A DNA stretch of 64,000 nucleotides, from sequence record OK272470.1. The stretch is one strand, 5' to 3'. This document shows positions 1 through 27,738 of this stretch, one piece after another (positions within the stretch are counted from its first letter, which is position 1; each line of letters starts with the position of its first letter). Both the position numbers and the translations under genes were made by a program. Under the pieces are notes generated by a model that saw only the letters and a program-made list of their open reading frames with translations, searched no databases and had not been told where the DNA came from. This DNA comes from Escherichia phage JLBYU50.

Positions 1-1
1 T

Positions 2-505
2 GTTAAAGACTTAGTTAAAGATTTAGGTACTACAGAAGGTAATATTCACGTAGACACAGAGAAAACTTTATCATCTGCAACAGCTATGTGTGGTAACACA
101 TCACATTACTTAGAAAGTATCTGTAAAGGTATTGATCATAATGTGTCAATACAAGATGGATCTGTTTACGTAACACCAAGATCACAAATGTCTAGTGCAA
201 GATGCGCATATATTAGTGCAGAAACAGGTTTAATTGGTAGTCCAGAACCTTTCCACAACGATATTAAACCGACACAAAAAGTAACTAAATCTTCCAAGAA
301 AGCTAAAAAGCCTACAGATGGTGTTAAGTTCAGATGTGAAATGAACGGTGCTATCTTACCAGAAAAAACTGTTTGGCTCAAGAGTCATAACTATGATGGT
401 GGTTTTAAGGTGGTGTCTGTTGTTCATACAGGAGATAGGGAAGGTAAAGACTGGACAACTGAAGTAGAGTCTGTATCTGTATCTGCAATTATTAAGAAGG
501 GATAG
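2..505 (+). CDS. 5'-truncated virion/baseplate-associated protein (ORF open to window start)
   Basis: Reading frame of ORF 86..505 has no stop back to position 2; first gene of co-oriented structural module. Confidence 0.45.
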   Translation, partial: VKDLVKDLGTTEGNIHVDTEKTLSSATAMCGNTSHYLESICKGIDHNVSIQDGSVYVTPRSQMSSARCAYISAETGLIGSPEPFHNDIKPTQKVTKSSKKAKKPTDGVKFRCEMNGAILPEKTVWLKSHNYDGGFKVVSVVHTGDREGKDWTTEVESVSVSAIIKKG

Positions 506-507
506 AA

Positions 508-1245
508 ATGGATGCTTTAAATTTTGTAACAGCAATCCGTGGATTAATCAACGAGCAAGTTGCGGAAGTACATACATCTTTACCTGTAAGGGTAATTGGT
601 GTAGATTATGGATCTAAGACAGTAACTTTAGAATCTATCGTAAAAAATACCAGATCTACTGAAGATGAAATAGATTACCCAACATTCCACGATGTTCCTT
701 TTATGGTAAATGGTGGTGGTACAGGTAGAATTTCATTTCCAATTAAAGCAGGAGATATTGGTGTTGTTGTCTTTTCAGAAAGAGATCCGTCGAATGCTTT
801 CCAGACAGATGGAGATACAGCCAGCAGCGGAACATTAATTCAACCTTGCGGTTTGTATCCAGCCTGTTTTATTCCTAAGATAGCAACAGCTACAGATTCT
901 TCAGAAGAAGTAGATTCTGAAAAAGTTGTTATCTCAAATAATAAGCAAACTTACGCTTCGTTTGATCCTAACGGTAATATATCTGTGTACAACACACAAG
1001 GTATGAAAATAGATATGACACCAAACAGTATCGTTCTTACTGATGCAGGAGGAGGAAAACTTACACTGCAAGGCGGGACTATGACATATAAAGGTGGCAC
1101 TGTAAATTTAAACGGTTTAACAATCACACCTGACGGTCGTATGAAAGATAGTGGTGGCATTGGTTTACACACACATACACACCCTGTACGCGGTGTTGAA
1201 ACTGGTGGTAGCACTGTTACTTCCGACAAACCAAATGGAGGTTAA
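508..1245 (+). CDS. baseplate central spike / puncturing-device candidate
   Basis: Gly-rich beta-rich C-terminal half ending in HTHTHP His cluster, as in iron-loaded spike tips; RBS aaggga upstream; structural neighbourhood. Confidence 0.5.
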   Translation: MDALNFVTAIRGLINEQVAEVHTSLPVRVIGVDYGSKTVTLESIVKNTRSTEDEIDYPTFHDVPFMVNGGGTGRISFPIKAGDIGVVVFSERDPSNAFQTDGDTASSGTLIQPCGLYPACFIPKIATATDSSEEVDSEKVVISNNKQTYASFDPNGNISVYNTQGMKIDMTPNSIVLTDAGGGKLTLQGGTMTYKGGTVNLNGLTITPDGRMKDSGGIGLHTHTHPVRGVETGGSTVTSDKPNGG

Positions 1246-1248
1246 CAG

Positions 1249-1884
1249 ATGGGAATACCATTTGATTTAAAACTTGATGGTTCTAACGATTTAGTAATGG
1301 TAGATGGTGATTTAACACTAACCACAACTAAAAGTGAAATTGCAGCACAGACGCTTGGAATAACACTTAGAACTTTCCGTGGAGAATGGTTCCTCAATTC
1401 TAATTTTGGGGTTCCATATCTGCAAGAGATTATTGGTGTTGCCAAGAAGAAAGAGATTGTTGATCGCATTTTCTTATCAACTATCGCAAGTAATGTTTAT
1501 ATAGATAATATTAATTCCTACACATCCTCTTATGATAGAGATGATAGGTATTACTCAATGAACGTTACTGTTACAGTTGGTGAACAAGTTGTTAGTGCTC
1601 TATTCAGTACACAGCCGTCTGAAGAATATATCTATCCAGAAGCTGGTGACGATAATGCAGCAATCACTTGTGAAGCATTTGAAATTGTTGAATCTGCAAA
1701 TAGACTCTATCGCTTTATTAACATTGTTGGTCTTCCTAAAGATACTTATTCTACTTGGTGGAATGAGTGGTCTAACGAGGCATTGCTTGAAAAATACCTT
1801 GTTAACGAAGCCAATAAAGGTCTTGCAACCAATTACAACTATGCTATAACAGCAACAATGGGAGCTACAAATAATAATGGCTGA
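1249..1884 (+). CDS. baseplate protein (gp25/W-like family candidate)
   Basis: N-terminal pattern DLKLDGSNDLVMVDGDLTL...RGEWFLNSNFGVPY typical of small baseplate wedge proteins; start abuts previous stop. Confidence 0.45.
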   Translation: MGIPFDLKLDGSNDLVMVDGDLTLTTTKSEIAAQTLGITLRTFRGEWFLNSNFGVPYLQEIIGVAKKKEIVDRIFLSTIASNVYIDNINSYTSSYDRDDRYYSMNVTVTVGEQVVSALFSTQPSEEYIYPEAGDDNAAITCEAFEIVESANRLYRFINIVGLPKDTYSTWWNEWSNEALLEKYLVNEANKGLATNYNYAITATMGATNNNG

Positions 1885-2350
1885 TTTAACTACAATCAAG
1901 GTGTCTGATCTACCTGTAACAACATCTGTTTCAGACACAGATTATTTTGTAACAGATCAATCAGGCATCACTAAGAAAACATCATTACGTGTTCTTCTTG
2001 CGGGTGCTGGTGTTACACGAAATCGTCTTTCTGCAAGGGGTACTGTTACAAATACCCTAGCTTTAGATATTAGCACGGCAGAGTATTTCTCTGCCACTTT
2101 ATCTAGTCCAACTTGCAGTATTTCATTTAGTAATGTTCCAGTTACAACTAACATTGTTCAAAACTTTACACTATCCCTACGTCAAGGCAGTGGAGCAAAT
2201 AAAGTAACGTGGCCTCAATCTGTTAAATGGAGTTTTGGTCGCGCTCCTGTTTTGAGTTATAAACAGGGAGCTACAGATATTTTTGAATTTGTTAGTTATG
2301 ATAATGGAGCTACCTGGATAGGTAGTTTAGTGATGGCAGGAGTGATTTAA
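1877..2350 (+). CDS. structural protein, unknown
   Basis: ATGA-type overlap with flanking genes, co-oriented in structural module. Confidence 0.5.
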   Translation: MADLTTIKVSDLPVTTSVSDTDYFVTDQSGITKKTSLRVLLAGAGVTRNRLSARGTVTNTLALDISTAEYFSATLSSPTCSISFSNVPVTTNIVQNFTLSLRQGSGANKVTWPQSVKWSFGRAPVLSYKQGATDIFEFVSYDNGATWIGSLVMAGVI

Positions 2351-5226
2351 TGTCAAGAATTAAGCACAGAATTGACAATGTTTTTCAACTGATCGATGGA
2401 CATATTCAGTTCTTAGATCGTAATACAGGTTTAACTGTAGATCCTACAGTGCAACACTATGTATTAAACCCACAAAACGTTCTAGCTAATAACAGACACT
2501 TTATAAACTGGACTGCTCAAGAAGGGCAACCAAACGGGGATGCTACAACAGAAGGTCAATCCGTGCTTATTCTTGGTTGCGCTTATGCATACCTGGCTTC
2601 CGGCGATACAAAGTATTTAGACTCTGCTAAAAAATATTGGCAAGCCTATATAGATTACTTCTTTGGTGGTCAACCTATCCCAGATCCGCCAGCAAAGTAT
2701 CGCCCTAACTGGATTATTAACGGTAAAGAACCACGTCTTGCACATTATCCTCTTACAGATGATGGCTACCCTACACACGGAGGTTTTAAGGGTAGCTTAA
2801 TGACGTGGACTAACGGTAGAACAGTTATTCCTCATGGTGCTCCACATTGGGGAGAATACCTTGACAAAGCATGGTTTGCTTTTAATGGTAATCTAGGATG
2901 GAACTCTGTAAACGCTACAGTATATGCTGTTAATGCAGATGGTACAACAGATTGGTCTAAGAAGGGAGATCAATGGGATGTTGATTGGATCATTGATCGT
3001 CTAGGACGTAAAGTTGATTGGGATGGAAATATCTTAGAAGAAGGTTTTCCAACATCTCAATACGGAACAGTTCAACTAAAAAATACTTCTGTAAATGGTA
3101 CATATAAATTTAACTACGCGACTTGTAACCCTGTTGAACACGGTGGTTATTTAATGGAGCGTAACACTATGTGGCATAACAGACCAGTTAACGTTCCGGT
3201 AGAAATGGGCTTTCAGGATAATGCGTCAGATGCCGAAACTTGGTGGTGTGATGCTAATTACCTGATGTACCAAATTACAGGGGAAAGAAAATATTGGCTA
3301 TGCTGGCAGTCTTCACTGTTAGTGTGTCAAGATTATTCAAACATTGATATGTTTGATAAATTCTTCCGTAAGTCTACATATGCAACTATTCCGTTTACAG
3401 ATGGCATCTCTTACGATTATTCGTATCCATCTACAGCAATACCTAAATATTCAAGAGATACTTTAGGTTATATTGTTATTAGACAAGATGTTGCTGCTCA
3501 AACAACATTAGAACAGCAAGCCATTTGGTTTAAAGTTGATCAGAACTCTAAGTTACGAGTCCAGTTTCAAGGTGTAGATGACGCAGGACAGGGTATTCTT
3601 TTCCGTCCAGAGTTGGAATTAAGTAAGACCAAAGATGAAAATAACACAGTAACTTACCGCTGTGGCTTACCACTAGGTACAGCTAATATGACAAGCATGG
3701 ATATTCCACTATCCAGCTTTATGAGAAGTACCCCTCCTAGTGGTGGAACATATATTATCGCAGATCCGCGAATTATTGTTGACTGGGGTGACAATACTGT
3801 GGTACAATATAAGTATGTAACAGGTATTGCTGGAACTAATAATGACCAGATTGTTACTGCATCAATGGATACGGATGGTGGTATCACTGTTGGTTTTTGG
3901 TTAACTCCTACATCAAAAGCTAATGTTAAGTCTATTACATATAGAACATATGAAGATGACTTTAACATGACTATCACGGATGCTCAAGGTTGGAGATGGT
4001 GGGTTATGCTTCCTAAAACACAAGGAGCATGGAGTACGAAGACTTTATCAGCTTCTGATTTTAAGTTAAGTGCTTACCAGCCTAATCATCCAGATACAGA
4101 TCCTAAACCTTCAGCAATAAATCTTACTGCGGTAGATCAGGTAAATTTAGTTCTTGATACGGCTCCTGTAAATGGTTTAACAGGAACAATAGATTTCTAT
4201 TGTATTAACGATGTACCTGAAAGATATTCGTCATCTTCTGGTGATGATTATACCATGTACTTCCGTATTACTGTACAGGCTTCAAGTCCTCATACTGCTA
4301 AATTAGGTGATTGTACTATTATTGACTATAAATTAAATAGTCTTAATTACACACCAGGAATAATTCCATTCTCTAATATCAGTGACCCAAACACTGCATT
4401 ATACGATGGATGGCGTGGTATTCCATACCCAGGATACCAGTATCCTTCCTTATACTGTTTCGCAGGTAGGGATATTGATTGGACACGTTTAAACAACAGT
4501 ATTGATTTCTTGTATGATGCTCAAATGTGGTTTTATAACACGTTTGATCCTGTGATGCCTGGGCCTATGGCACAAGCATATGTGTGGGATCGTTGGGATG
4601 CAAGAAAATACGGTGAACCTAATACGTTTACAATGAAACACTGGAATGAAAAAGCGTGGGATGGTTATGAAGCTCGTGCATTCTACTGTGCTTGTCATGC
4701 TGTATACGAACTTGTACAAAGAGGAGAAACACCTCCTGAAAAACTAGTAACTGTTTGTAAAAATTGGATCAACTACCTTAAATGGTTCCAAGACAATAAT
4801 GATGGAAGAACACCAACTATCTTTAACCCAGATGGTACAGTTCTTGCTCCTATAGATGACTTTACTAGTCATATGTCTGCACTGTTTATGGCGGGTTGTT
4901 CAATCATGGGCTTGGCAGGTTATGATTCACAAATTCCAAACATTGGTATTGTAGCAGACAGATGTTTTGATCTGATTCAGCAAAACTATATTGTGCTTTC
5001 CCCTAACCATCCGATGAATGGTTCCTGGAGTGTTGCACCACGCCCAGATTCAGATAACGGAATGTTCTTTGGTTTCCATGCTGGAGAACTATTACGTGGT
5101 TTTGGTTTATATGCCTTGTATCGTAAACTAAACCCTCAAAACGCTTTACCAATTTTGGATAATAGTAACATACCAACACTAACTGTTCTAACTATGAATG
5201 ATATTAGTGTTGATGTAACCAAATAA
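2350..5226 (+). CDS. large virion protein, putative tail fibre/baseplate-associated carbohydrate-active protein
   Basis: 958-aa ORF, Trp/Tyr/Asp-rich, translationally coupled to neighbours. Confidence 0.55.
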   Translation: MSRIKHRIDNVFQLIDGHIQFLDRNTGLTVDPTVQHYVLNPQNVLANNRHFINWTAQEGQPNGDATTEGQSVLILGCAYAYLASGDTKYLDSAKKYWQAYIDYFFGGQPIPDPPAKYRPNWIINGKEPRLAHYPLTDDGYPTHGGFKGSLMTWTNGRTVIPHGAPHWGEYLDKAWFAFNGNLGWNSVNATVYAVNADGTTDWSKKGDQWDVDWIIDRLGRKVDWDGNILEEGFPTSQYGTVQLKNTSVNGTYKFNYATCNPVEHGGYLMERNTMWHNRPVNVPVEMGFQDNASDAETWWCDANYLMYQITGERKYWLCWQSSLLVCQDYSNIDMFDKFFRKSTYATIPFTDGISYDYSYPSTAIPKYSRDTLGYIVIRQDVAAQTTLEQQAIWFKVDQNSKLRVQFQGVDDAGQGILFRPELELSKTKDENNTVTYRCGLPLGTANMTSMDIPLSSFMRSTPPSGGTYIIADPRIIVDWGDNTVVQYKYVTGIAGTNNDQIVTASMDTDGGITVGFWLTPTSKANVKSITYRTYEDDFNMTITDAQGWRWWVMLPKTQGAWSTKTLSASDFKLSAYQPNHPDTDPKPSAINLTAVDQVNLVLDTAPVNGLTGTIDFYCINDVPERYSSSSGDDYTMYFRITVQASSPHTAKLGDCTIIDYKLNSLNYTPGIIPFSNISDPNTALYDGWRGIPYPGYQYPSLYCFAGRDIDWTRLNNSIDFLYDAQMWFYNTFDPVMPGPMAQAYVWDRWDARKYGEPNTFTMKHWNEKAWDGYEARAFYCACHAVYELVQRGETPPEKLVTVCKNWINYLKWFQDNNDGRTPTIFNPDGTVLAPIDDFTSHMSALFMAGCSIMGLAGYDSQIPNIGIVADRCFDLIQQNYIVLSPNHPMNGSWSVAPRPDSDNGMFFGFHAGELLRGFGLYALYRKLNPQNALPILDNSNIPTLTVLTMNDISVDVTK

Positions 5227-5234
5227 GGAAAATA

Positions 5235-7394
5235 ATGAAACAGGCTATTTTTACTGTAACTCGAAATACGAGAGTAAATGCCAGTTCATTCAGCTATAAG
5301 ACCGTCGATGGAACGGCGGTCGCTGGTAGAGATTATGTAGCTAAACAGGGAACAGTAACGTTCCCTTCTGATGCAGATTCTGCTACTGTAGTGGTTGATG
5401 TATATGAACGTCCGGCAAACTCTTTAGATCTTTATTTTACTCTTGAGATTACTAGCATAAGTCAAAATAACATGATGATCAACGAAGAAATTCGTTGTGT
5501 TATTACGACTGATCAATCGAATACAACCCCACTAACTTGGCCTGTTGTGAAGTCTAGAATGTTTGATCCTAAGTTTTGGACAATAGATTCTCAAGCAACA
5601 GAGAGCTGTTCTATTATCTCTAATGGTGATTCTTTCACAGCAAGAATGGTTAATAGGACAGTGGCTGGTCTTGCTGGGATTATTTGGTCAACTTACGATA
5701 AATATGATCACAAAGGATTAGGCTACCAAGAACATTCTGACTTAAGTAAAGAGAAACTTTGGTTTAAAATGGAACTTAGTCAAGGTGTTCCTGGATTAAA
5801 AGAAGAAAAATTATTGCCATCCTTAACAGTGACACTGAAGGATGAAACAGTTCATTATGTATCTCTAAACTTTTATGCAGAAGAAGTTTCAGAGGACGGT
5901 AAAACAGCAACAATAAAATTAGATTTCTCAAATTTAAAATCTGGGCCAGAAAATGATATTGTTGTTGACACTACACAGATAGATAATATGTTCTTCTCCT
6001 TGATCTCCACAAGGTATCAAGAAATTGAAGATGTTATACCTGTAGACAATATGGATCTTTCCTTTAAGTTTACCATACTAGAGCCTGATACTGGTTACAG
6101 TATGATGAATATGGGTAATTTAAATGTTCCGGCGCACACCATAAGAATGTGTACATCTTATGATGATATGTATAACCTAACCCCAGAGCGAGTTATTTCT
6201 AACACCTATAGATTAGGTTATAGAGATATGATTAACCATTATAATGGTATGTCACACTATTATCAATTTAGTTGGGATGCTGGATCTAATAAATGGGCTT
6301 TGAACAGAACAGAATATTTAAACCCAGCAACAGAAGCCTGGTTTGACAATTTCCACGCTAATGCAAAAGCTATGGGCTACACAGTAATGAACTCCTTAAG
6401 TTTTGAACTTATGAGTACAGTGTGTCCTGTAGAATGGGTACAACATGCTTGGAATGATGATCTTGCTGCTACAGGTTATGAGCCACCAAGTTATGTTTTA
6501 TCTCCTTCAATTGATGAAGGGATGAATTATTTACAAGGTGTAATAAATAAGATAGCTTCTATATCCGCTGCCAATGATCTTCCTGTTATTATTCAGGTTG
6601 GTGAACCGTGGTGGTGGTATAACACAGCTACCAATCTACCGTGTATTTATGATTATACAACCAAAGTTGCATTTAATAATGAAACTGGATTATATGCACA
6701 AGATGTTGGTACAGTTAAGAATTATAAAACTGGTACACCATATGATGAATATTATGCATTCCTATCTAAAACATTAGGACTACGTGTTGCTAAGTTTGCA
6801 ACGGATACTAGATTAGCATATCCTGGAGCGAAAGTTACATTGTTACCATTTGTGCCATCCATTTTGGGTAATGGTATGATGGAGTTTGTTAACTTCCCTA
6901 AAGATTATTATATCCCAGAAAACTTTGACTTTTATTGTTCAGAATGTTATGACTGGTTGTTGGAAGGCAAGATGGAAAGATCTTTCGACGCTATCACAAT
7001 ACCTAATGAGCAACTAGGTTTTAGTTACGATAAGATACATTATCTTGCAGGGTTTGTTCCAGATGCAACTCTAGCACCATTATATGGCTTTGATCCTGAA
7101 TCAAACTATAGAACATATTTGTGGAAAATGATTATAGGCAATATTGTATTGAATGACCAGAAGTTTGTTGGTTTATATCAATACATATGGGCTTACCCAC
7201 AAATAATGCATGATTCAATAACTGTTCTTAATTCAAAATCCCAAGTGTTTTATATGGGTAATGTGCCTTTGAATTGCTACTTGCAAGATATCACTCTTAA
7301 ACAGGTAAATGTTGAGATTGCCACTATAAGTGGAATTACATTAGCCACTAAATCTGGAGAAGATTTAGTAACAACACAAAAATTTTATATATAG
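5235..7394 (+). CDS. virion protein with N-terminal Calx-beta-like domain
   Basis: Motif TVDGTAVAGRDYVAKQGTVTFPSDADSATV resembles Calx-beta; 719 aa. Confidence 0.5.
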   Translation: MKQAIFTVTRNTRVNASSFSYKTVDGTAVAGRDYVAKQGTVTFPSDADSATVVVDVYERPANSLDLYFTLEITSISQNNMMINEEIRCVITTDQSNTTPLTWPVVKSRMFDPKFWTIDSQATESCSIISNGDSFTARMVNRTVAGLAGIIWSTYDKYDHKGLGYQEHSDLSKEKLWFKMELSQGVPGLKEEKLLPSLTVTLKDETVHYVSLNFYAEEVSEDGKTATIKLDFSNLKSGPENDIVVDTTQIDNMFFSLISTRYQEIEDVIPVDNMDLSFKFTILEPDTGYSMMNMGNLNVPAHTIRMCTSYDDMYNLTPERVISNTYRLGYRDMINHYNGMSHYYQFSWDAGSNKWALNRTEYLNPATEAWFDNFHANAKAMGYTVMNSLSFELMSTVCPVEWVQHAWNDDLAATGYEPPSYVLSPSIDEGMNYLQGVINKIASISAANDLPVIIQVGEPWWWYNTATNLPCIYDYTTKVAFNNETGLYAQDVGTVKNYKTGTPYDEYYAFLSKTLGLRVAKFATDTRLAYPGAKVTLLPFVPSILGNGMMEFVNFPKDYYIPENFDFYCSECYDWLLEGKMERSFDAITIPNEQLGFSYDKIHYLAGFVPDATLAPLYGFDPESNYRTYLWKMIIGNIVLNDQKFVGLYQYIWAYPQIMHDSITVLNSKSQVFYMGNVPLNCYLQDITLKQVNVEIATISGITLATKSGEDLVTTQKFYI

Positions 7395-7402
7395 GAGTAA
7401 AA

Positions 7403-9976
7403 ATGTCAACTACAATTACTAATTTACCCGAAACATCAAAAGTTAATGGTTCTGATTACCTGGTTTTAGACCAACCTGATAAGACTGTTAAAAGCACAGT
7501 TTCCAACTTTCTTGCTGACACTGGGGTGGTTTTAGCCACCCAGTTGAAAGATACAGATGGAGCAGATTTAATACAATCCTCAAATGGTAATACTGTTCAG
7601 GAAGAGTTGAATAACAATCTTCTTAATGATCGTGAACAGTGGCATCGTAGTCTTGCTGAGGCAGGGTTAACCCTTGTCAACGGTAGCTTTGAAGAAGGGG
7701 CTACAGTAAACAATAAGACGGATGCTGTTTGGCATATTGCTGGTGGGCAGTGCTATACGTGGGGTGGTGAATTTCCTAAAACAGTAGCTGCTGGTTCAAC
7801 TCCAGAAACATCTGGTGGCATTGGTCTTGGTGCATGGGTTAGTGTTGTGGATATGTCATTAAGGGATAATCTTTCAAACTCCAGTAATGATAATTACGGT
7901 GATGCGCTGGTAGCAGTTAAGCAGCCGTATACTACCGCAATAAGTAGAACGCAGCATGATAAAAATGCTGATGTACTTGATATTTCGGATTTTGGTGTAG
8001 ACATAACTGGTGCTTCTGATGAGGGTAGTAAGTTACAACAGATATTTAATGAGTTGGCCGCAGCAGGCAAGACTATTCGTATGCGCGGTTCTGTAAAGAC
8101 TACTATTAACCTAGATATAAGGTGTAACGTGCTGTTTGAGCAGGGTTTCAAACTAACTGGCGTGAAACTAGAAACTGGACCTCAGACTTACATTAATATT
8201 TTTAATCGTAATGTAGATGTAAGCCATATTATCCTAGATGGTATTGTTATGTGTTTCTACCCCGTAAGTTCCACTACTACTGTTAGAAACAAAAGATGTA
8301 TTACGTTTACATCCAACACGTTAGAAGATTCATGTGTTCAGGTGGGCGGTAATAACCTATCTGTACGTAACGTGTTAATTTCTAACAATACTTTTAAGAA
8401 CTCTGGGTCACGTATTCCAACAGCAATTCGCCTAACTAATGTCTCAAATATTGAGGTGAGTTTTAACCTTATCCATGAGTATGGTAGACCTATTTACCAA
8501 ACAGCAACCCGCTCTTTCTCCAACTACAATGTCAATATACACCACAATAATATGGTTTGTGAGTATGGTATAACTCTTGCGGGTACTACTGCTTTTAGGG
8601 TTAGTAAGTTCACAATTGCTGACAATGACATTGTTTGCGAGGTAAGAAATACAGCAACAGGTGGTCGGGATGGTATTGATGTAGTTTATGGTACTAGTGG
8701 TTTGATTACTAACAATAACATAAGGACAAACGGAAGAAGCCTTAGACTGTCTAATACTAAGGTAGATGTACTGTTTAACGATATGATATCCAGCGCAACC
8801 AGTGCATTCTCAGTATTAATGGCGAGTTGTTATGAGTCATCATTTGTTGGTAACACTGTTTTCAATAACTCAACTGCTGAAATTATTGTTGTACATGTGC
8901 AGGATGAAGCTGGTGGGCTTTACCGGAGTAATAACATTCGTGTGGAATCTAATACAATCAAGGGATTTGGTAGGCTGATTCGGGTATTAGATACAAAGGA
9001 TTATGTTGTCATCAATAACAGATTAATCAGAACATCAAACAATGGTAATGCAGTTATTATTGCGGATGGGACTAGTGACAGAGGCCAGGTGCATAGCAAT
9101 GTGGTAGTTGGTCCTGCTGGAGTGGTAGTATCTGATATAGGCGGAACCAACAATGCAACAACCCCTGCTGATACACTGCTGAGTGTTGCAGCTAACAGCA
9201 AGACCATAACAGCCGTGGCGAATGGATTAGTTGATCCAGACTTGAATAATTCGAAGGCATTCATCTTCAATGTTCAGGTGTCTGATGTTCAACTATTACG
9301 TGCGGTATCTTCTACAGGCTCAGGAAATGCTAAAACCGTATCTCAGTTCATGTCGGGTATAACTGGGGCAACTCTGGCATGGAATGGTACTGCCTTCCTA
9401 TCAGAGATGTCTGGACCACCAGATATATTTGTGAATGGTGTACTTCAAGATTCCTATGGTGCAGAAGACTATGTGTTCTACAGATCAGGGATGCTTATTG
9501 ATTCCCAGAATAAACTCAGTGTTAGAGACTTCCAGTGTATTGGGGATGGGGATACCATAAACGATGGGACTGGTAATATGACCCTTCGTAATATGGCAGC
9601 AGCACAATCGGCTGAGGGCGCTATTCACAGTGCTTTCTTCCGTGCTCCTCTTGTTATGAATGGCTCAGTGTATGACCCTACAGTAACAGGTATTGCATCT
9701 TCAGATTTGTTTAGCACAGCTCTAGATCCAAGAATGGCTATAGGACAAAAAGCTGATGGAACCTACGTTATTATTTGTGTTAATGGCAGAAACGCAGATG
9801 GGGTAAGTCCAGGCTGCACTATGCAGCAGCTAGCTTCTAAGTTTGTAGCCCTTGGTTGTATCAACGCAATGAATTTGGATGGCGGCGGTTCAGCTACTCT
9901 TTGGTATAACGGTGCTATCATTAATGACCCGGCGGATGGAAGTGAACGCCCTGTTTACCATTGTATGTATGTGTAA
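7403..9976 (+). CDS. tailspike: N-terminal anchor, right-handed beta-helix, C-terminal phosphodiester glycosidase (NAGPA)-like domain
   Basis: N-terminus MSTTITNLPETSKVNGSDYLVLDQ typical of tail fibre anchors; Asn/Gly/Thr-rich beta-helix repeats; C-terminal NAMNLDGGGSATLWYNG motif. Confidence 0.6.
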   Translation: MSTTITNLPETSKVNGSDYLVLDQPDKTVKSTVSNFLADTGVVLATQLKDTDGADLIQSSNGNTVQEELNNNLLNDREQWHRSLAEAGLTLVNGSFEEGATVNNKTDAVWHIAGGQCYTWGGEFPKTVAAGSTPETSGGIGLGAWVSVVDMSLRDNLSNSSNDNYGDALVAVKQPYTTAISRTQHDKNADVLDISDFGVDITGASDEGSKLQQIFNELAAAGKTIRMRGSVKTTINLDIRCNVLFEQGFKLTGVKLETGPQTYINIFNRNVDVSHIILDGIVMCFYPVSSTTTVRNKRCITFTSNTLEDSCVQVGGNNLSVRNVLISNNTFKNSGSRIPTAIRLTNVSNIEVSFNLIHEYGRPIYQTATRSFSNYNVNIHHNNMVCEYGITLAGTTAFRVSKFTIADNDIVCEVRNTATGGRDGIDVVYGTSGLITNNNIRTNGRSLRLSNTKVDVLFNDMISSATSAFSVLMASCYESSFVGNTVFNNSTAEIIVVHVQDEAGGLYRSNNIRVESNTIKGFGRLIRVLDTKDYVVINNRLIRTSNNGNAVIIADGTSDRGQVHSNVVVGPAGVVVSDIGGTNNATTPADTLLSVAANSKTITAVANGLVDPDLNNSKAFIFNVQVSDVQLLRAVSSTGSGNAKTVSQFMSGITGATLAWNGTAFLSEMSGPPDIFVNGVLQDSYGAEDYVFYRSGMLIDSQNKLSVRDFQCIGDGDTINDGTGNMTLRNMAAAQSAEGAIHSAFFRAPLVMNGSVYDPTVTGIASSDLFSTALDPRMAIGQKADGTYVIICVNGRNADGVSPGCTMQQLASKFVALGCINAMNLDGGGSATLWYNGAIINDPADGSERPVYHCMYV

Positions 9977-10016
9977 TTATCTGGTGGGACTATGCTAATG
10001 GCGTAGATTTCATAGC

Positions 10017-10048
10017 AAAAAAAAACCCCGCTTCGGCGGGGTAATCAT
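10017..10048. terminator. stem-loop ccccgc-ttcg-gcgggg flanked by A9 run
   Basis: Perfect GC hairpin after tailspike gene; T-tract would be on the opposite strand, so orientation is ambiguous. Confidence 0.45.
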
Positions 10049-10166
10049 TGAGAATAACAATAGGAGTACATATGGAATCTCAACTCAGTCAACCTAAGCA
10101 GGTTATCAACGTCAAAGTGAACAAGCAGAGTATCGCTCATGATTTAAAAAGTAATGAGAACGCACT

Positions 10167-10412
10167 ATGAGAAAATTTTTAATAGGTATGTTCTGTACAT
10201 ATCCTGATAATAAAGTCAGTTCTACTAAAGTTTGGAATGCTATTGGTATGATTGTTATGTCCAGTATGTTTATTTATTTGGGAATTGATAAAGAAATTCC
10301 TGAATGGATGGGCTGGGCTTTTGTTTTTATGATCACACCATCCAGACTAATGAAGAATTTAATAGATTTACGTTGGGGCAGATCACCTGCTCCTGATAAG
10401 GAGGATAACTAA
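10167..10412 (+). CDS. small membrane protein
   Basis: 81 aa with hydrophobic segments; stop overlaps start of baseplate J-like gene. Confidence 0.45.
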   Translation: MRKFLIGMFCTYPDNKVSSTKVWNAIGMIVMSSMFIYLGIDKEIPEWMGWAFVFMITPSRLMKNLIDLRWGRSPAPDKEDN

Positions 10413-11899
10413 TGGCAGATTATGGTTTAACAGATGCTGGTTTTGTAATTCCAACGTTTGATGATATTTTAAATAATTATATGACAGCATTGAAAAACAC
10501 TTTCGGTGCAGATACAGCTACATCTGAAGATACTGTCTTTGGTCAACTGTTTCGTATTATTGCATATACAGATTACACCCTTTGGGAAGGTATGCAAGGT
10601 GTTTACAATACCCAAACCTTAGATGGTGCAGAAGGTATTTACCTTGATGAAATCTTCTCTAAAAGAGGTTTTTATCGTAAAGCTGCTTCTGCTGGTAGTG
10701 GTTATGCTTATGTTAAATCTAACAATAAGGCAGCTTGGACTTATGAACTAAGCACAGATGTTTATTTTAATGCTGATAACGATTTAACATATTATGTCAG
10801 TGCACCGACAATGTTGAATGCTAAGATTGGAGCATATACCATTTCTAAAGCAAACGCAACAGCTTCTGGTGAAACTTCCATTACTTTCTACATTCAAAGT
10901 GCCATTGATGGTGGGCTTAACAGTAAAACACTAAGTCCTAGCAATACAAACTTTATTGTAGACCTCACGAATTTCATTAAAGCTAACGTATCAACAACAG
11001 ATCGTGCTTTAGTATGGAATGATGCTAGTAATGTTTACATGGGTTATAATCCAGAAGATAATGTTAACCCAGTAGGTCTAGTAACACCAGTGAAATTTTA
11101 CGCATCTATTGCAATAGGTACAAAATGGAGTGAAATTCCAGTTACGTGTTCAGACGTTGGTTATAATCCAGTAGGTACAGAAAGTATTACAGGTATTTCT
11201 TCAACGTTTACAGGCTTTTTAGATACAGGTAACTTCTATCCGTTCTCTCCAGGTACAGATGTTGAAACAGATGCAGAATTCCGTTCTCGTTTCAATGATA
11301 ATATGGATGAAGCTAATGCTGCTACTCGTGCTGCTATTGTTAAAGCTCTATTACTGACAGATGGTGTGACAAAGGTTAAGATTTATGATAACCCTACACT
11401 ACACGATCAGGAACATGCTCCAGCTATGACATTCCAGACTATTGTGTATGGTGGTACAGCAGAAGAAGTTGCACAGGTTATTTATAATACTAAGCCTATT
11501 AACACCTTAACTTATGGTACGACAGCAATTACTATCATAACAGAAGATGGTGGTCAAGAAGTAATTCGTTTTTCTCCTGGGGATAATGCGGAATACTCGC
11601 TTAAACTGGTGTATCAAACTGGCAATGGTAGTGTGTTAAGTACAACAGAAAGGGAAAATATTGTTTCTGCTCTTGCAAACTTACAGGCTTATTTTGAATT
11701 AGGGTCAACAGTAACTAACGACCAGATAAAAGGTGTAATTTATTCTGCACTTGCGTTCGGACGCTTGACTTCTCTCCGTGTTTATGTTAAACTTAATACT
11801 GAGGATGACAGTAAATATAATGAGGGAGATATCACTCCAGCGTACAATGTTGTACCATCCTTTGACCTTGATAATATTTCCTACGAGTACGGAGTCTAA
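10412..11899 (+). CDS. baseplate J-like protein
   Basis: 495 aa; N-terminal MADYGLTDAGFVIPTFDDIL pattern characteristic of baseplate J family. Confidence 0.6.
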   Translation: MADYGLTDAGFVIPTFDDILNNYMTALKNTFGADTATSEDTVFGQLFRIIAYTDYTLWEGMQGVYNTQTLDGAEGIYLDEIFSKRGFYRKAASAGSGYAYVKSNNKAAWTYELSTDVYFNADNDLTYYVSAPTMLNAKIGAYTISKANATASGETSITFYIQSAIDGGLNSKTLSPSNTNFIVDLTNFIKANVSTTDRALVWNDASNVYMGYNPEDNVNPVGLVTPVKFYASIAIGTKWSEIPVTCSDVGYNPVGTESITGISSTFTGFLDTGNFYPFSPGTDVETDAEFRSRFNDNMDEANAATRAAIVKALLLTDGVTKVKIYDNPTLHDQEHAPAMTFQTIVYGGTAEEVAQVIYNTKPINTLTYGTTAITIITEDGGQEVIRFSPGDNAEYSLKLVYQTGNGSVLSTTERENIVSALANLQAYFELGSTVTNDQIKGVIYSALAFGRLTSLRVYVKLNTEDDSKYNEGDITPAYNVVPSFDLDNISYEYGV

Positions 11900-11901
11900 A
11901 A

Positions 11902-12531
11902 ATGGCAGTGAGTGTTGACCATGTGACAACGTGGGATAGTATCAATGAAGATGTTAAAGACCTACTGATTGAAGATTTTAAATCTTCTCCGAACATTGTC
12001 AAACTACTCTATATCATTTCTAGCGAAAAACAAAAGATAGATCAGGCAATGATCTATCTTGCCAAACACCGCTTAATCTCTACTGCAACTGGTAAGTATT
12101 TAGATCTTATTGGTGAAGAAATGGGGATGGAAAGAAATGGTGCTACAGATGAAGAGTATCGTACAATATTAAAAATCAGGGCTTATCGTGTTGCGTCTTC
12201 TGGTACGCGAGATGATATCATTGATATGTTCGCTCGTTTTACAGGAACAGAAAAAGAAACGATTAATACATACGTTGGATTAAATAAAACATTCGACGTA
12301 TTCTTTTATAATTTGTGTCTACAATCCGATCAGGCAGTAGCACAGTTACTTAACGTTTTCCCGATCCTAAGTAGTTATCGCTTAGGTGCGAAAGCGGGTT
12401 CAGCCTTTGGTTTCACTTCCTATTATGCCACAAAGCCACCTCATGGTATAGGTGGTTTAGGTTCTCTTTACACAGAGGCTGAAGGAGATGATACAGGGCG
12501 AATGACTATGCTGATAGCTCAAATAGAATAA
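11902..12531 (+). CDS. baseplate/tail protein (gpI-like position)
   Basis: Follows baseplate J gene with 2-nt gap; 209 aa. Confidence 0.45.
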   Translation: MAVSVDHVTTWDSINEDVKDLLIEDFKSSPNIVKLLYIISSEKQKIDQAMIYLAKHRLISTATGKYLDLIGEEMGMERNGATDEEYRTILKIRAYRVASSGTRDDIIDMFARFTGTEKETINTYVGLNKTFDVFFYNLCLQSDQAVAQLLNVFPILSSYRLGAKAGSAFGFTSYYATKPPHGIGGLGSLYTEAEGDDTGRMTMLIAQIE

Positions 12532-12544
12532 GGAGTTACCCTTA

Positions 12545-13528
12545 ATGGCAAAGCCACAATACTACCCTGACTGGGCGACACAAACAGTAACCCTCCCAGG
12601 AACGGGAAACACAAACAAGATTAGACCAAAAGAAACCATCCGTAATGTTGGTATGGACTTTGGTCAGATTATGACTTGTGAAGAAATGAACTGGATCTTA
12701 AACAATATTGGGTCTTGGATTCGCTATATGCAAGATGAATTCTTCCCAACATTGCCTACGACATATCTTCCTATAGTCGGTACTAAAATTACAATGGCAG
12801 GTGATGCTACAGGTGAAGTTACATGGAATGGTAATGCTGCTGTAACATTGTCTATTCAAGTAGTAGATAACAGCCATAATCACTTATCAGCTAACATTAC
12901 AGACGCAACATCAAACCAAGTTGTAGGGAATGTCCTTGTTAAGCGTGATAATGGTGGTGCTATCTATGCAGGTGATATTTACACTTGTGGTACAGGTGCT
13001 ACAGATCCTGCAACATTATTTTTTAGAAACTACAACGGACAAACAGTAGGTAATATGTCCTCTGAACCAGGTGCAGGTGGTCAACTCTATATTTATAGAA
13101 TAAATCCATCTACTGGAGGAACATCTTGTGGAGTCCGTTTGTATGATGCAGGTTATGTTTTAATAGACAATCCTCGTTCTAATTCTGGTCAAGATACTGG
13201 TAATGGTAATGCTCTTGTAAGATTAGATTATCTTAACTCAAGACTAAACTCATTGCAAAGCACACTGCAAAATAATATTAACAACGTTAATAGCAACTTG
13301 CAAGGCCAAATTAATAACATTAACAATAGAGTTTCTTCTGTTGTGTCTGGTATTCGTCTAGGAGCACGTATCCAAGCTGGTGTGTCTGAGTCTCGTTTCT
13401 ATGCTGGTCACGTGATCACAGGTTGGGGCTTTGGTGATAAGAAAGAACTTCGTGGTGCTTGGTATTGGTCAGCCCCGCTACAATATTATATTAATGGTAG
13501 CTGGATAACAGTAACCAACGTTTCATAA
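12545..13528 (+). CDS. tail fibre protein (short)
   Basis: Asn/Gln-rich heptad region NNINNVNSNLQGQINNINNR; RBS aaggag. Confidence 0.5.
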   Translation: MAKPQYYPDWATQTVTLPGTGNTNKIRPKETIRNVGMDFGQIMTCEEMNWILNNIGSWIRYMQDEFFPTLPTTYLPIVGTKITMAGDATGEVTWNGNAAVTLSIQVVDNSHNHLSANITDATSNQVVGNVLVKRDNGGAIYAGDIYTCGTGATDPATLFFRNYNGQTVGNMSSEPGAGGQLYIYRINPSTGGTSCGVRLYDAGYVLIDNPRSNSGQDTGNGNALVRLDYLNSRLNSLQSTLQNNINNVNSNLQGQINNINNRVSSVVSGIRLGARIQAGVSESRFYAGHVITGWGFGDKKELRGAWYWSAPLQYYINGSWITVTNVS

Positions 13529-13537
13529 GGAGAGTCT

Positions 13538-14089
13538 ATGAAAAAAGATGTTATTTTTACAGGTTTTGAATTGTACGAACCGGAATTAACAGAGGAAAAC
13601 ATTCTTTATCTTTCTGTTGGCGGTGGTTTTTTGCAAGACAAGGATGGTAATGATTGGTATCAACTTCAAAAAACCTTGATGGCTGAATATCCCGACGCTT
13701 ATTTTATTACCTTAGATGATAATAATATTGTACGTGGTGCTACTAAAGATGTTACTACCTATTTCCCTGCCGGACAATCTATTTTAGTTACATATAATGC
13801 ACCAGATAAAATAGAAGATGAAAGTAATATTGGCTCTTGGCAATATGTTAAAGGTAAATTTGTTCCTCACAATAGTCTTGCTATTGAAGATGCTACTCTT
13901 AAGTTAGAAAAGGAGTTAACTTGGGCTACGAATCAAGTGTCTGCGATTCAAGATTTAGAGGAATTACAAGGTTTATCTGAAGAACAAAAAGATTGGTTAG
14001 GAAAAGTTAAACTCTATCGTGCAACATTAATTCAAATTAACGTTGAAGATGCACCTAATATAACTTGGCCTACAAGACCTAAGAAATAG
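13538..14089 (+). CDS. hypothetical protein (possible tail fibre assembly factor)
   Basis: RBS aaggagag; position downstream of fibre gene. Confidence 0.4.
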   Translation: MKKDVIFTGFELYEPELTEENILYLSVGGGFLQDKDGNDWYQLQKTLMAEYPDAYFITLDDNNIVRGATKDVTTYFPAGQSILVTYNAPDKIEDESNIGSWQYVKGKFVPHNSLAIEDATLKLEKELTWATNQVSAIQDLEELQGLSEEQKDWLGKVKLYRATLIQINVEDAPNITWPTRPKK

Positions 14090-14098
14090 GGGCAATGT

Positions 14099-14440
14099 AT
14101 GGAGCTAACAGAAGTATGGGATATCGCTAAAGAGGCGATTATCCCTCTTATTGGCGTAATCTGGGTGGTCTTCAAACAGAAGATAGATGATATGGCAAGT
14201 GATTTGGATAAAATGGAAGACAAATACCGCGAACTAGAAAAGAAGTTGGTGTTTGTTGAATCCACTTATGCTACCAAAGCGGAACTTGCTCAAATGCTTA
14301 ACCAGATCAACTCTACATTAATGGCAAATAACACTGCCTTAGAACAGAAGATTGAAAAAATAATGGATTTAAAAAATGCTCCTGTTCAATTAATGTTAGA
14401 GGAGATTACGAAGCGCACACAAAGTAAGGACAAAAATTAA
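14099..14440 (+). CDS. membrane-anchored coiled-coil protein
   Basis: N-terminal hydrophobic helix IIPLIGVIWVVF followed by charged coiled-coil. Confidence 0.45.
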   Translation: MELTEVWDIAKEAIIPLIGVIWVVFKQKIDDMASDLDKMEDKYRELEKKLVFVESTYATKAELAQMLNQINSTLMANNTALEQKIEKIMDLKNAPVQLMLEEITKRTQSKDKN

Positions 14441-16854
14441 TGGCGAATTTTCCAACATATCCTGCTACGACACTAGAACAAGGTGTTGATCTGGTTATAT
14501 TCTCGTCTAACCAGATGCATGATGTTATTAATGGGGATGCTACAGCAACTGTAGAAACCGAAACAGGTTTAATACCTACACTGCGTAAAGCACTTGTTGA
14601 TAACTTCTTCTTTAAGAGTCCTGTTGCTTGGTCAGCAGGATCAACTGAAACTGTATTTAACCAGTTACGTTATTTTGAAAACGGTATCTTGAGTGGGTAC
14701 TATTATGCCCCATCTGCCACTACTGCGAACCCTGTACCTATGCAGGGAACACCTGTAGGAGACAGTAACTGGACTCTGTACGCTCTTAAAACTGAACAGT
14801 TAGCTTCAGATGTGTATCCTTGGTATTTTAAAGGTGCTACAGGATATGAAACAGAAATCAGTCCTCCTTATATCTTTGATAATGCTATTGTCACCATTAA
14901 CGGTGTAATTCAGATTCAAGGTGAAGCATTTACTATCAAAGATAGTAAAATTATTCTGGCAGAACCATTAGGTTTAGATCCGTCTACTGGTCTACCTAAC
15001 AAATTGTTTGCTTTTATTGGTAAAACAACAGCCTCTACTTCTTACGTAGAGAAAAACCTTTTGTCATCCACCACTGGTGCAGCAATGGTTGGTCTTCCAT
15101 CTGGAGGCAACCTGTTACAAGCTCAATACTTTGTAACGCCTGAGCAGTTTGGTGCAATTGGTGATGGAGTTACCGATGATACTCAAGCAATTTTAAAAAC
15201 CATTACTTTCGCTAACACGAATAACATTCAAGTACGTGCAGATAAGAATTATAGATTCACAAGCTCAATTGCTATGTCTGGTATTCGTTGGTATGGTGGT
15301 ACATTCACTGGTAACGGTGGAACAATGATTTCTACTGTGTCCTGTTGGATGGAAAACGTTCGCTTTGAAAAATGTTATGTTAAGATGTTAGGTGGTGATT
15401 GCCGATTCTATCGTAATATCTTCTCCAATGCAACATCTACAGCAGCATTCTTAATGCAAGCAATGACAAGTGAAGGTACGTTGGACTTCAGTTACAACGA
15501 AATGTATGGTTGTAAATATGCGATCCTGCAACAAGGTACTGGAGAAGTAATGACCTACGGGCGTTACTCTAACAACTATATTCACGATATTAAAGGTGAT
15601 GCTATTGAACTTAACGTAGTTCAAAAACACTACACTGAAGGTTTGATTATCGAGAATAACCACATTGCTAACGTAGATGCTTCTGGACAAGGGGCAAACT
15701 GGGGTATTGGTATTGGTGTAGCAGGTAGTGGCCCATATGGTGTTGATGTTCCTGATTCACAATATGTACGTAATTTCAGTATCGTTGGGAATAGGGTTTA
15801 CAATTGCCGTCAATGTTTACACGTTGAAATGGGTAAAAACTTCACAATACGTGATAATGAAGTTTATCCTAACACAGCAGTTTCAACAGGTACAGGTTTA
15901 ACTACTTGTGGTGTTGCATTATACGGATGCCAAGATTTTGAAGTTGATGGTTTAACTGGTTATCTGCTTAATGATCCATCTGTTTCAACACGCATGGTCT
16001 TTATTGACTGGGGTGTTAACAGTGGAAGATATGCGGGGCCACCAATTAACTTTACAATTAAGAATTTGGATATTCCAGAATCTTCAATTGAGATTGCAAC
16101 ATCTGGATCAGATGACTGGGAAAACTCTACAATTGTTAGTAATATCAATTGTAATGTTTTTAAATGGCGTGGGCTACCATCTAGCTCTACCTTTAATAAT
16201 ATTCGTTGCCGTAGTATTGACTTTATTGGTCAACACGGAAGCGGAGAAGGAAGTGGTGGCGGTTTCTATACTCGCAGCCAATTCACGTATATGAAGTGGG
16301 TAGGATGTACAGCACTTAGCGGAGATGAAACAACAGTTTCTTTTGCTAAAATCTACACTGATCGTTGCGATCAGGTTGGAAATAACTTTGGTGTTCCAAC
16401 TGCTGTTGATGGTACAGGTCATCGTGGGCCAGTTTTAACTACTATTTCTGAACAATATTTTACAGCTTATGATGAATTCCCAGGTGGGCGTGAATTCCCT
16501 ACTGGAACAGTTATTCATTGTGCAAGCGGTAAAAAACATGTTGTTACAGTAGGTGGTGCTTTCTTTAGTGCCAACGAGAAAATAAAAGCAACTGTTACAG
16601 GTCAAACCTATCTACAGTCTAATGCTTTAAACTGGGCTAGTAATGGCTACGCTAAAGCAGCAGGTACTAAGATTGTTATTCCAGGTGCAGGTGCAAATGG
16701 CGGCGATCTTGTGACAACTATAGCACGTGCTACATATGTGACAAATAGTTTGTACACAATAGATATTGCAGATCCAATTGTAACACCTACAGCAGAGAAT
16801 ACACAAATTAAAGCTCTGAACCCTGTTACTTTTGTTACTGTCAATAATGCTTAA
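14440..16854 (+). CDS. tailspike with pectate-lyase-like right-handed beta-helix
   Basis: 804 aa; repeated N/G/T-rich beta-helix rungs; terminator downstream. Confidence 0.6.
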   Translation: MANFPTYPATTLEQGVDLVIFSSNQMHDVINGDATATVETETGLIPTLRKALVDNFFFKSPVAWSAGSTETVFNQLRYFENGILSGYYYAPSATTANPVPMQGTPVGDSNWTLYALKTEQLASDVYPWYFKGATGYETEISPPYIFDNAIVTINGVIQIQGEAFTIKDSKIILAEPLGLDPSTGLPNKLFAFIGKTTASTSYVEKNLLSSTTGAAMVGLPSGGNLLQAQYFVTPEQFGAIGDGVTDDTQAILKTITFANTNNIQVRADKNYRFTSSIAMSGIRWYGGTFTGNGGTMISTVSCWMENVRFEKCYVKMLGGDCRFYRNIFSNATSTAAFLMQAMTSEGTLDFSYNEMYGCKYAILQQGTGEVMTYGRYSNNYIHDIKGDAIELNVVQKHYTEGLIIENNHIANVDASGQGANWGIGIGVAGSGPYGVDVPDSQYVRNFSIVGNRVYNCRQCLHVEMGKNFTIRDNEVYPNTAVSTGTGLTTCGVALYGCQDFEVDGLTGYLLNDPSVSTRMVFIDWGVNSGRYAGPPINFTIKNLDIPESSIEIATSGSDDWENSTIVSNINCNVFKWRGLPSSSTFNNIRCRSIDFIGQHGSGEGSGGGFYTRSQFTYMKWVGCTALSGDETTVSFAKIYTDRCDQVGNNFGVPTAVDGTGHRGPVLTTISEQYFTAYDEFPGGREFPTGTVIHCASGKKHVVTVGGAFFSANEKIKATVTGQTYLQSNALNWASNGYAKAAGTKIVIPGAGANGGDLVTTIARATYVTNSLYTIDIADPIVTPTAENTQIKALNPVTFVTVNNA

Positions 16855-16856
16855 TT

Positions 16857-16880
16857 AAAAAGGGGCGAAAGCCCCTTTAT
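16857..16880 (+). terminator. rho-independent terminator
   Basis: aggggc-gaaa-gcccct hairpin followed by TTTAT. Confidence 0.65.
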
Positions 16881-16895
16881 AAAAGGAGTAGTAAA

Positions 16896-18857
16896 GTGAT
16901 TTTAACACGTCCAAATAGTGCCATTGCAGACATGGTAGAGTCTCGCTATAGAAAGCGTAGAAGTTTTGCAAGTGGTTTTACCTTAAGAGATGCTCGTGAA
17001 GCATTGCTCTTTGAAGCTGACGGTAACTACTATCAGTGGAAAGGTTCTCTACCTAAAGTTGTACCTGCTAACTCTACTCCTACATCTACTGGAGGGATTT
17101 CAGATACAGCTTGGAAAAATGTGGGTAATGCAGATGACATTGCTCAAATAGAATCAGAATTAGATGCTATTGAAGCTGAAATTGAAGATCTTAGAGAATC
17201 CATTCCAGAAGCTGGTAAATCAGCTTACCAGATTGCCGTAGACAATGGTTTCCAAGGTACTGAGACAGACTGGTTGGCTTCTTTAAAAGGTGATCCAGGT
17301 GCTCCATTAAAGCTGCTAGGGACGCTATCTAATACCAACCAATTACCTACAACTGGAAACAATGCAGGAGATGCATGGATTGTAGGCGAGAATATGTATG
17401 CTTGGGATGGTACTGCTTGGAGAAAAGTAAACTCACAGGGGCCAGAAGGTAAATCAGCTTATCAAGTTTGGCTTGCAGCAGGAAACCAAGGTACAGAACT
17501 AGATTATCTTGCTTCAATTAAAGGTGATAAAGGGGAACCTGGCCCAGAGGGGCCACAAGGTGTGCCAGGTAACAATGCTAATGGTTTTGATTACCAAGGT
17601 GCAGCTAATTCCGTTTCAGATCTTCCTTCTGCATCTCCTGGAAACACATCTCAAGCATGGAGTATTGGTACATATCTATACGTGTCAAACGGTGTAGAAT
17701 GGATCAATATGGGCGCTATAGTGGGGCCAAAAGGAGATAAAGGCGACAAAGGAGATAAGGGTAACACTGGTGATTCTGCTTATCAAGTCTGGTTAAATGC
17801 TGGTAACGTTGGTACTATTGACGAATATATTGCCTCTCTGAAAGGAGAAAAAGGTGATAAGGGAGACAAGGGTGATCAAGGTGAGCAGGGTATACAAGGC
17901 TTGACGGGGCCAACTGGTGCAGGGTTGACAATTATTGATATTCTGACTGACACTTCTGAACTACCACAAACTGGAGAAGATGGTGATGGTTATCTGATCA
18001 ATAATGAACTTTGGGTTTGGTTGCAAGGAGCCACACAGTGGACAAATGTTGGTCGTTTAGCTGGTACTCCAATCACTGCAAAAGGACACGTTGCGTCTGC
18101 AAGTGCACTTCCTCCTACAGCCAATTACGGTGATGCTTATCTGACGGAAGATACAGGTCATCTTTACATTTACACCTATGATGAACAAACTCAAACTGCT
18201 GAATATGTAGATATGGGTAGTTTGAAAGGTGATAAGGGTGAAAAAGGTGACGCTGGTACTAACGGTACAGACGGTGCAACTTGGATTGTTAAAACAACAG
18301 ATCCAATCTCTAGTGATGGTAAACAAGGTGATTATGCCTTTAATATCTCCACTGGCGAGGTGTTCTTAAAAACATCTGCAACTGCCTGGACTTCTCAAGG
18401 TACACTGCCTAGCATCACAGATGCACCTAGTGACGGTAAAATTTATGCTCGTAAAGATGGAGCATGGGAAGAACTCACTAGTTCTGTAGATGGTCAAGAT
18501 ATAGTTCCAACAAAAGTAACAGCTAATTTTATAGAGGTTACAGCATACACCAACAACTCTGTTACAGGTGACTGGACACCTCCAGGAACACATAACATGA
18601 ATGTGTTGAATCTTACTGGTAACGCTACTATAAAAGCATGGCCTGGTGTCGAAGATAGCACAAAACCTAAACCATTCTCTGCAATAGTTTATCTTATCCA
18701 AGATGCCACTGGGGGTCATACTGTTACTTTAGATCCATCTTACAAAGTAATTGGTTCTAGTGATATTAATACAGATCCTAACGGAGTAACAATACTACAA
18801 CTAACATATTGTGGTATTGGCGATTACGTGGATGCTATTGTTGCTAAACGCACATAA
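16896..18857 (+). CDS. collagen-like repeat tail fibre (GTG start)
   Basis: Gly-X-Y tracts GDKGEPGPEGPQGVPG and GPKGDKGDKGDKGNTG; RBS aaggag 7 nt before GTG. Confidence 0.65.
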   Translation: MILTRPNSAIADMVESRYRKRRSFASGFTLRDAREALLFEADGNYYQWKGSLPKVVPANSTPTSTGGISDTAWKNVGNADDIAQIESELDAIEAEIEDLRESIPEAGKSAYQIAVDNGFQGTETDWLASLKGDPGAPLKLLGTLSNTNQLPTTGNNAGDAWIVGENMYAWDGTAWRKVNSQGPEGKSAYQVWLAAGNQGTELDYLASIKGDKGEPGPEGPQGVPGNNANGFDYQGAANSVSDLPSASPGNTSQAWSIGTYLYVSNGVEWINMGAIVGPKGDKGDKGDKGNTGDSAYQVWLNAGNVGTIDEYIASLKGEKGDKGDKGDQGEQGIQGLTGPTGAGLTIIDILTDTSELPQTGEDGDGYLINNELWVWLQGATQWTNVGRLAGTPITAKGHVASASALPPTANYGDAYLTEDTGHLYIYTYDEQTQTAEYVDMGSLKGDKGEKGDAGTNGTDGATWIVKTTDPISSDGKQGDYAFNISTGEVFLKTSATAWTSQGTLPSITDAPSDGKIYARKDGAWEELTSSVDGQDIVPTKVTANFIEVTAYTNNSVTGDWTPPGTHNMNVLNLTGNATIKAWPGVEDSTKPKPFSAIVYLIQDATGGHTVTLDPSYKVIGSSDINTDPNGVTILQLTYCGIGDYVDAIVAKRT

Positions 18858-18858
18858 T

Positions 18859-18885
18859 CAAAGCCCCTTCGGGGGCTTATTGTTT
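18859..18885 (+). terminator. rho-independent terminator
   Basis: aagcccc-ttcg-ggggctt hairpin then ATTGTTT. Confidence 0.65.
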
Positions 18886-18896
18886 AAGGAGATTAA

Positions 18897-21716: not shown

Positions 21717-21748
21717 TAAAAAAGGAGCCTAATGGCTCCTTTTCTTTT
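21715..21748. terminator. bidirectional terminator between convergent structural (+) and replication (-) blocks
   Basis: ggagcc-taat-ggctcc hairpin flanked by A6 upstream and TTTTCTTTT downstream. Confidence 0.7.
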
Positions 21749-21751
21749 ATC

Positions 21752-22871: not shown

Positions 22872-22884
22872 TATATCTCCTTCA

Positions 22885-22910
22885 AAGAAAAGGAGCCGTT
22901 AGGCTCCTTA
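22885..22910 (-). terminator. rho-independent terminator downstream of SSB-like gene
   Basis: ggagcc-taac-ggctcc hairpin followed on - strand by TTTTCTTTG. Confidence 0.6.
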
Positions 22911-22931
22911 TATTCACACAATATTTAACTA

Positions 22932-23879: not shown

Positions 23880-23895
23880 AAATTCTCCTCTATAA

Positions 23896-24294: not shown

Positions 24295-24337
24295 TCAAGT
24301 CCTCATAATAACACATAATTATAATGTTTGTCAACAC

Positions 24338-24931: not shown

Positions 24932-24965
24932 ATTTTCTCCTATCTCTTATGGTCTTTGCGTTATT

Positions 24966-24985: not shown

Positions 24986-25003
24986 TTATGAAATGGTTTA
25001 AAA

Positions 25004-25048: not shown

Positions 25049-25068
25049 CCTTTAAAATCAAAGAGATG

Positions 25069-27736: not shown

Positions 27737-27738
27737 TG

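Follow-up and report, generated by a model that had tools for sequence, protein, structure and literature searches.

Does the open reading frame at positions 508 to 1,245 of the Escherichia phage JLBYU50 sequence (OK272470.1) encode the membrane-piercing central spike of the baseplate, and does the HTHTH string near the end of its product mark an iron-binding apex? Both proposals had been made in an earlier note on this DNA, and both were followed up here within the window (i.e., the whole 64,000-nucleotide stretch that was analysed). The gene almost certainly encodes a phi92-like (genus Justusliebigvirus) central spike, an orthologue of phi92 gp138 acting as an iron-tipped trimer that would pierce the outer membrane and then dissociate. 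Near-identity to a protein of solved structure, domain content, conservation of an HxH motif, and gene context were all observed for the JLBYU50 protein, and none of the results contradicts its identification as a spike. The feature is already known, being a two-substitution orthologue of the protein that founded the "iron-loaded spike" concept.

The spike gene and its neighbours

The open reading frame is present on the plus strand exactly as the earlier note had placed it, and its boundaries are exactly those of PHI92_gene_138. The features of the gene and its surroundings are as follows:

1..505, plus strand: baseplate hub gene, 3' part (phi92 gp137, T4 gp27-like; phrog_196 'baseplate hub', E 7.5e-33)
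495..500, plus strand: ribosome-binding site AGAAGG, located 7 nt ahead of the start codon and within the end of the hub gene (phi92 annotates a ribosome-binding site at the equivalent position)
508..1245, plus strand: central baseplate spike gene, phi92 gene 138 orthologue (ATG start, 245 aa plus stop)
1243-1245, plus strand: spike stop codon
1249..1884, plus strand: phi92 gp139 orthologue (sheath initiator, T4 gp25-like; phrog_4233, E 1e-78; phrog_120 'baseplate wedge subunit', E 6e-22)

The hub gene, which is truncated by the start of the window, stops 2 nt ahead of the spike start codon, and the orthologue of gp139, the sheath initiator of phi92 (PMC13450770), begins 3 nt past the spike stop; these short gaps indicate that the spike gene belongs to a tightly packed baseplate operon. 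The gene order is that of phi92 genes 137-138-139, with the spike adjoining the gp27-like hub gene in the baseplate module, and many fibre genes lie directly downstream of the spike region. Scans for promoters and terminators over positions 1-3000 yielded no more candidates than expected from shuffled sequence. Antisense open reading frames within the spike gene (e.g., 951..1229, minus strand, 92 aa) were dismissed because the gene on the opposite strand is 99% conserved, with mostly synonymous substitutions.

Identity with the phi92 spike and distribution among phages

When the protein was compared with all PDB chains using phmmer, 243 of its 245 residues (99.2%) were the same as in phi92 gp138 (chains 3pqi_A, 3pqh_A, and 21vq_t; E 7e-161, full length), the only substitutions being V141 and K213, where phi92 has I and T, respectively. 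The two genes show 10 nucleotide differences in 738, 8 of which are synonymous. PDB entries 3PQI and 3PQH are crystal structures with titles that read 'bacteriophage phi92 membrane-piercing protein', while 21vq is the cryo-EM structure of the phi92 spike in the baseplate, where it forms an axial trimer at the tail tip, in agreement with the membrane-piercing central spike that had been proposed. Positions 1-2400 of the window share 99.0% identity with positions 72362-74761 of phi92 (FR775895.2), and the identity reaches 99.2% for several further genomes of Justusliebigvirus.

A homologue of the spike was detected by tblastn in 425 of 50,697 phage records. The spike is 100% identical in at least 39 records (Justusliebigvirus genomes) and at least 99% identical in 55, and annotated records with a near-identical spike mostly name it "baseplate spike" or "baseplate central spike". 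The identical protein is still a 'hypothetical protein' in many records despite the solved structures. At E<=0.01 the spike had no match in the PHROGs library, unlike in Pfam and the PDB; this is treated as a gap in the library rather than as evidence against the identification. Five unannotated 'Campylobacter phage' records (MG065639, MG065645, MG065656, MG065689, and one more) are 98.8% identical to positions 1..2400 of the window; they list C. jejuni as host, a label that looks doubtful, and four of them are listed with a 100% identical spike.

Domain architecture and structure

Three regions were delimited along the chain, the first two by matches above the gathering scores to both Pfam domains of the spike family:

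580..804, plus strand: N-terminal OB-fold domain, residues 25-99 (Pfam PF18352; score 41.7 bits, cut-off 26.1, E 1.2e-10)
925..1158, plus strand: intertwined triple beta-helix (trimerisation) domain, residues 140-217 (Pfam PF21930; score 85.7 bits, cut-off 27, E 2.1e-24; profile matched in full, 1-75)
1159..1242, plus strand: apex domain region, residues 218-245, which includes HTHTH (same as the C-terminus of 3pqh_A, 3pqi_A, and 21vq_t)

In phi92, the OB-fold N-terminal domain docks the spike onto the hub and tube, and an apex domain is also described (PMC13450770); the apex start given here, residue 218, is an approximation set where the PF21930 match stops. The C-terminal residues 140-245 contain 18% Gly compared with 12.7% for the whole protein, and Thr and Asn are also abundant. 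The Gly-rich C-terminal region described in the earlier note is therefore real, but it does not end with the string quoted there, since GIGLHTHTHPVRG (residues 217-229) is followed by 16 further residues (VETGGSTVTSDKPNGG) before the stop.

The AF2 model (alignment A1), which represents a single chain with metals not modelled, has a mean pLDDT of 65.7 and a pTM of 0.39, with pLDDT rising to about 90 over residues 150-210, where it consists of a run of short beta-strands. The low overall confidence is what would be expected of a chain whose folding requires an intertwined trimer, and the model was relied on for the beta-helix part only. A Foldseek search of the PDB with this monomer model returned the phi92 spike 3pqi first (E 4.5e-26), together with 3pqh_A, on which the model superimposes with a TM-score of 0.84 (normalised to the target) and an rmsd of 4.2 A. 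The next matches were the central spikes of PhiTE, the Pseudomonas phages SN, E217, and Pa193, Bas63, R2 pyocin, and Pam3; the phiKZ spike and the spikes of two extracellular contractile injection systems were also matched, and P2 gpV (3qr8) appeared at rank 47 with a probability of 0.97. Of the two comparisons suggested by the earlier note, with phi92 gp138-type spikes and with P2 gpV, the former thus gave near-identity and the latter a match in fold. Both a trimeric beta-helix and a cluster of His residues at the tip, either of whose absence from a model would, according to the earlier note, refute its proposal, are present in the solved structures of what is essentially the same protein, so that the proposal stands. 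When the query was restricted to the last 75 aa or the last 54 aa, phmmer recovered only the phi92 chains and chance matches, indicating that the apex has no sequence-detectable relatives among the other solved spikes.

The histidine motif and the iron cage

The HTHTH string is present at residues 221-225 (nt 1168-1182), as had been noted, and its conservation was assessed in homologues gathered from a large protein collection (38 with at least 53% identity, of which 21 were aligned with the window protein, n=22). Conservation in these 22 sequences delimits one further feature:

1174..1182, plus strand: conserved HxH motif H223-T224-H225, putative Fe ligands

In all 22 sequences, which include homologues with as little as 53% identity, H223 and H225 do not vary, and conservation of T224 is at least 90%. 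Position 221 (nt 1168-1170) is not conserved, being occupied by H, D, or N and in many of the 22 by D or N. Since H223 and H225 are invariant and H221 is variable, the conserved element is the canonical HxH rather than HxHxH. Judged from the alignment, the HxH motif is more than a chance occurrence, and the His that opens HTHTH is an additional one, specific to the clade.

In the phi92 baseplate, the spike trimer (OB-fold domain, intertwined beta-helix, and Fe-loaded apex) is mounted on the hub where the tube ends, one Fe ion is held at the tail tip by three HxH motifs, and the spike is lost from the tail tip upon contraction (PMC13450770). Three symmetry-related copies of HxH make up an octahedral cage around one Fe ion (bioRxiv 10.1101/2023.02.25.529910). 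The coordination of iron by paired His residues at the apex, which the earlier note had given as established knowledge, thus holds for phi92 itself. The trimer, the iron binding, and the position in the baseplate are taken from the published phi92 structures: by analogy with the 99.2% identical phi92 protein, for which this arrangement is known, the JLBYU50 spike would be a homotrimer with one Fe in an octahedral six-His cage.

From the conservation pattern, we infer that the Fe ligands are H223 and H225. The cryo-EM study of phi92 gives no residue numbers for the ligands (PMC13450770), and none were found in the literature searched, where a full-text search for His223/His225 returned unrelated papers only. 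A profile search of the PDB (A1) aligned PhiTE across the apex region with no HxH at the matching position, so that this alignment does not help to decide which His residues are ligands. H221, as found in the phi92 clade, could conceivably combine with nearby residues in a second ion site, specific to this clade and located immediately above the Fe cage, an idea that must be considered very doubtful; such a site, if real, might tune the stability or release of the tip.

Proposed mechanism and alternative roles

Three chains would assemble into a needle, with the N-terminal OB-fold domains seated on the gp137 hub, itself a trimer, where the tail tube ends, and the middle parts intertwined in a triple beta-helix. 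The C-termini would taper into the apex, where H223 and H225 of each chain would enclose one iron octahedrally and stiffen the tip. We infer that mechanical piercing and later dissociation take place during infection: contraction of the sheath would cause the tube to drive the spike through the host outer membrane, and the spike would then dissociate, leaving the tube open for the tape-measure protein and DNA.

The term 'puncturing' rests on structure and position, not on genetics. In the laboratory, P2 phages with the gpV apex deleted, or with the His cage changed to Phe, infect like the wild type (bioRxiv 10.1101/2023.02.25.529910), and because apex and cage are dispensable under these conditions, the need for iron in piercing is unproven. 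These mutants favor a role in which the central spike serves mainly as a plug for the tube and a nucleus for assembly, with the iron cage acting as a device for folding and stability and taking no part in membrane penetration. Such a role is nevertheless unlikely, given that HxH is very highly conserved in unrelated spikes, that an unfolded, wider P2 apex (the only variant with lowered plating) cuts plating about two-fold (bioRxiv 10.1101/2023.02.25.529910), and that piercing is suggested both by the sharp-needle geometry and by the location at the front of the tube.

An additional enzymatic role is suggested by records of the BASEL collection (JohannJBalmer, EmilieFrey, and PaulScherrer), in which the identical protein is named 'baseplate central spike and tail lysozyme', implying a T4 gp5-like protein that also digests peptidoglycan. 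This can be given next to no credence: Pfam detects only the OB-fold and the beta-helix, with no lysozyme or hydrolase domain in the 245 residues (E<=1), and OB-fold, beta-helix, and apex together account for all 245 aa. The solved homologues are pure spikes, and an apex with HxH is characteristic of spikes without the gp5/PAAR arrangement (bioRxiv 10.1101/2023.02.25.529910). While intermolecular HxH cages are also known from phage fibres and tailspikes (bioRxiv 10.1101/2023.02.25.529910) and many fibre genes lie immediately downstream, the chance that the protein is a fibre or tailspike in which the cage keeps the trimer chains in register is close to nil, as the N-terminal OB-fold domain is spike-specific, the gene directly follows the hub gene, and the modelling of the near-identical protein on the central axis of the phi92 baseplate already refutes this reading.

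The membrane-piercing spike of JLBYU50 represents the archetype of the iron-loaded phage spike, whose structure was determined in 2012 and, in situ, once more in 2026. It occurs in E. coli phages of a common group and has little discovery value. The analysis does confirm that an apex HxH motif can be recognised from sequence alone, with the correction that the conserved pair consists of H223 and H225 only.

Other features of the window

Several observations were made elsewhere in the window, which has a G+C content of 37.9% and a change in gene orientation from plus to minus at about 21.7 kb; no tRNA gene (ARAGORN) and no Rfam family at gathering score were found in the whole window (1..64000). 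The phi92 gp142 orthologue (5235..7394, plus strand) has an N-terminal Calx-beta domain and matches the N-terminal and TIM-barrel domains of the Pfam 'non-contractile tail sheath protein', family names that are odd for a phage with a contractile tail; the protein is probably a fibre-associated glycosidase. It is followed by an 857-aa tailspike (7403..9976, plus strand) in which a Tail_spike_N domain is combined with a phosphodiester-glycosidase (NAGPA) domain at the C-terminus. Its similarity to the endosialidase gp143, found at the same locus in phi92, is confined to the first 54 residues (96%), and positions 7555-10171 of the window have no DNA match in phi92. Judged by these comparisons, the tailspike is a swap of the receptor-binding module behind a conserved adaptor.

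A single 939-aa open reading frame with a Big_2 domain (18897..21716, plus strand) matches phi92 gp152 over residues 1-198 (97%) and phi92 gp153 over residues 335-628 (92%). In phi92, these are two separate coding sequences, and gp153 is flagged 'no RBS identified; weak prodigal statistics'; phi92 may hold a disrupted or mis-annotated version of the long gene. The open reading frame that matches the phi92 DNA polymerase gene 159 (25069..27648, minus strand) encodes 859 aa, compared with 1104 aa for the phi92 product: a stretch of about 730 nt in phi92 (L002 24826-25557) is absent here, while both flanks are 98% identical. The difference in length could be due to an in-frame insertion in phi92 (e.g., an intein or homing element) or to a deletion in JLBYU50.

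Comparison with other spike systems

The same tip role is filled in T4 by gp5 with gp5.4 (PAAR) and in the T6SS by VgrG with PAAR, through a combination of OB-fold, beta-helix, and metal-binding cone cap (bioRxiv 10.1101/2023.02.25.529910). In these systems the sharp tip resides on a separate PAAR protein, whereas in JLBYU50 the spike chain itself includes the apex; a PAAR-capped spike is one without a C-terminal HxH, and the JLBYU50 spike has an HxH apex of its own. T4 gp5 also carries a lysozyme domain between the OB-fold and the beta-helix, which the JLBYU50 spike lacks according to Pfam.

The three-part plan of OB-fold, intertwined beta-helix, and apex with Fe held in three HxH motifs is shared with P2 gpV (PDB 3QR7/3QR8; PMC13450770; bioRxiv 10.1101/2023.02.25.529910). 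P2 gpV is shorter than the JLBYU50 spike, with Fe ligands H197/H199 (bioRxiv 10.1101/2023.02.25.529910), and the two proteins show no phmmer similarity at E<=1 and 11% identity in the structural alignment. The spikes of PhiTE (9cuy_Y), SN (Orf41; 4ru3), E217 (gp43; 8eon_F), Pa193 (gp44; 9b45_g), and R2 pyocin (4s37) have homologous OB-fold N-domains (profile E 2e-22 to 4e-11), with 13-23% identity to the JLBYU50 spike and C-terminal parts that align poorly. With phi92 gp138, the JLBYU50 protein shares the length of 245 aa, the HTHTH string, the C-terminus, and the position between gp137 and gp139; the two phages themselves differ, JLBYU50 being another Justusliebigvirus with another tailspike at the gp143 locus.
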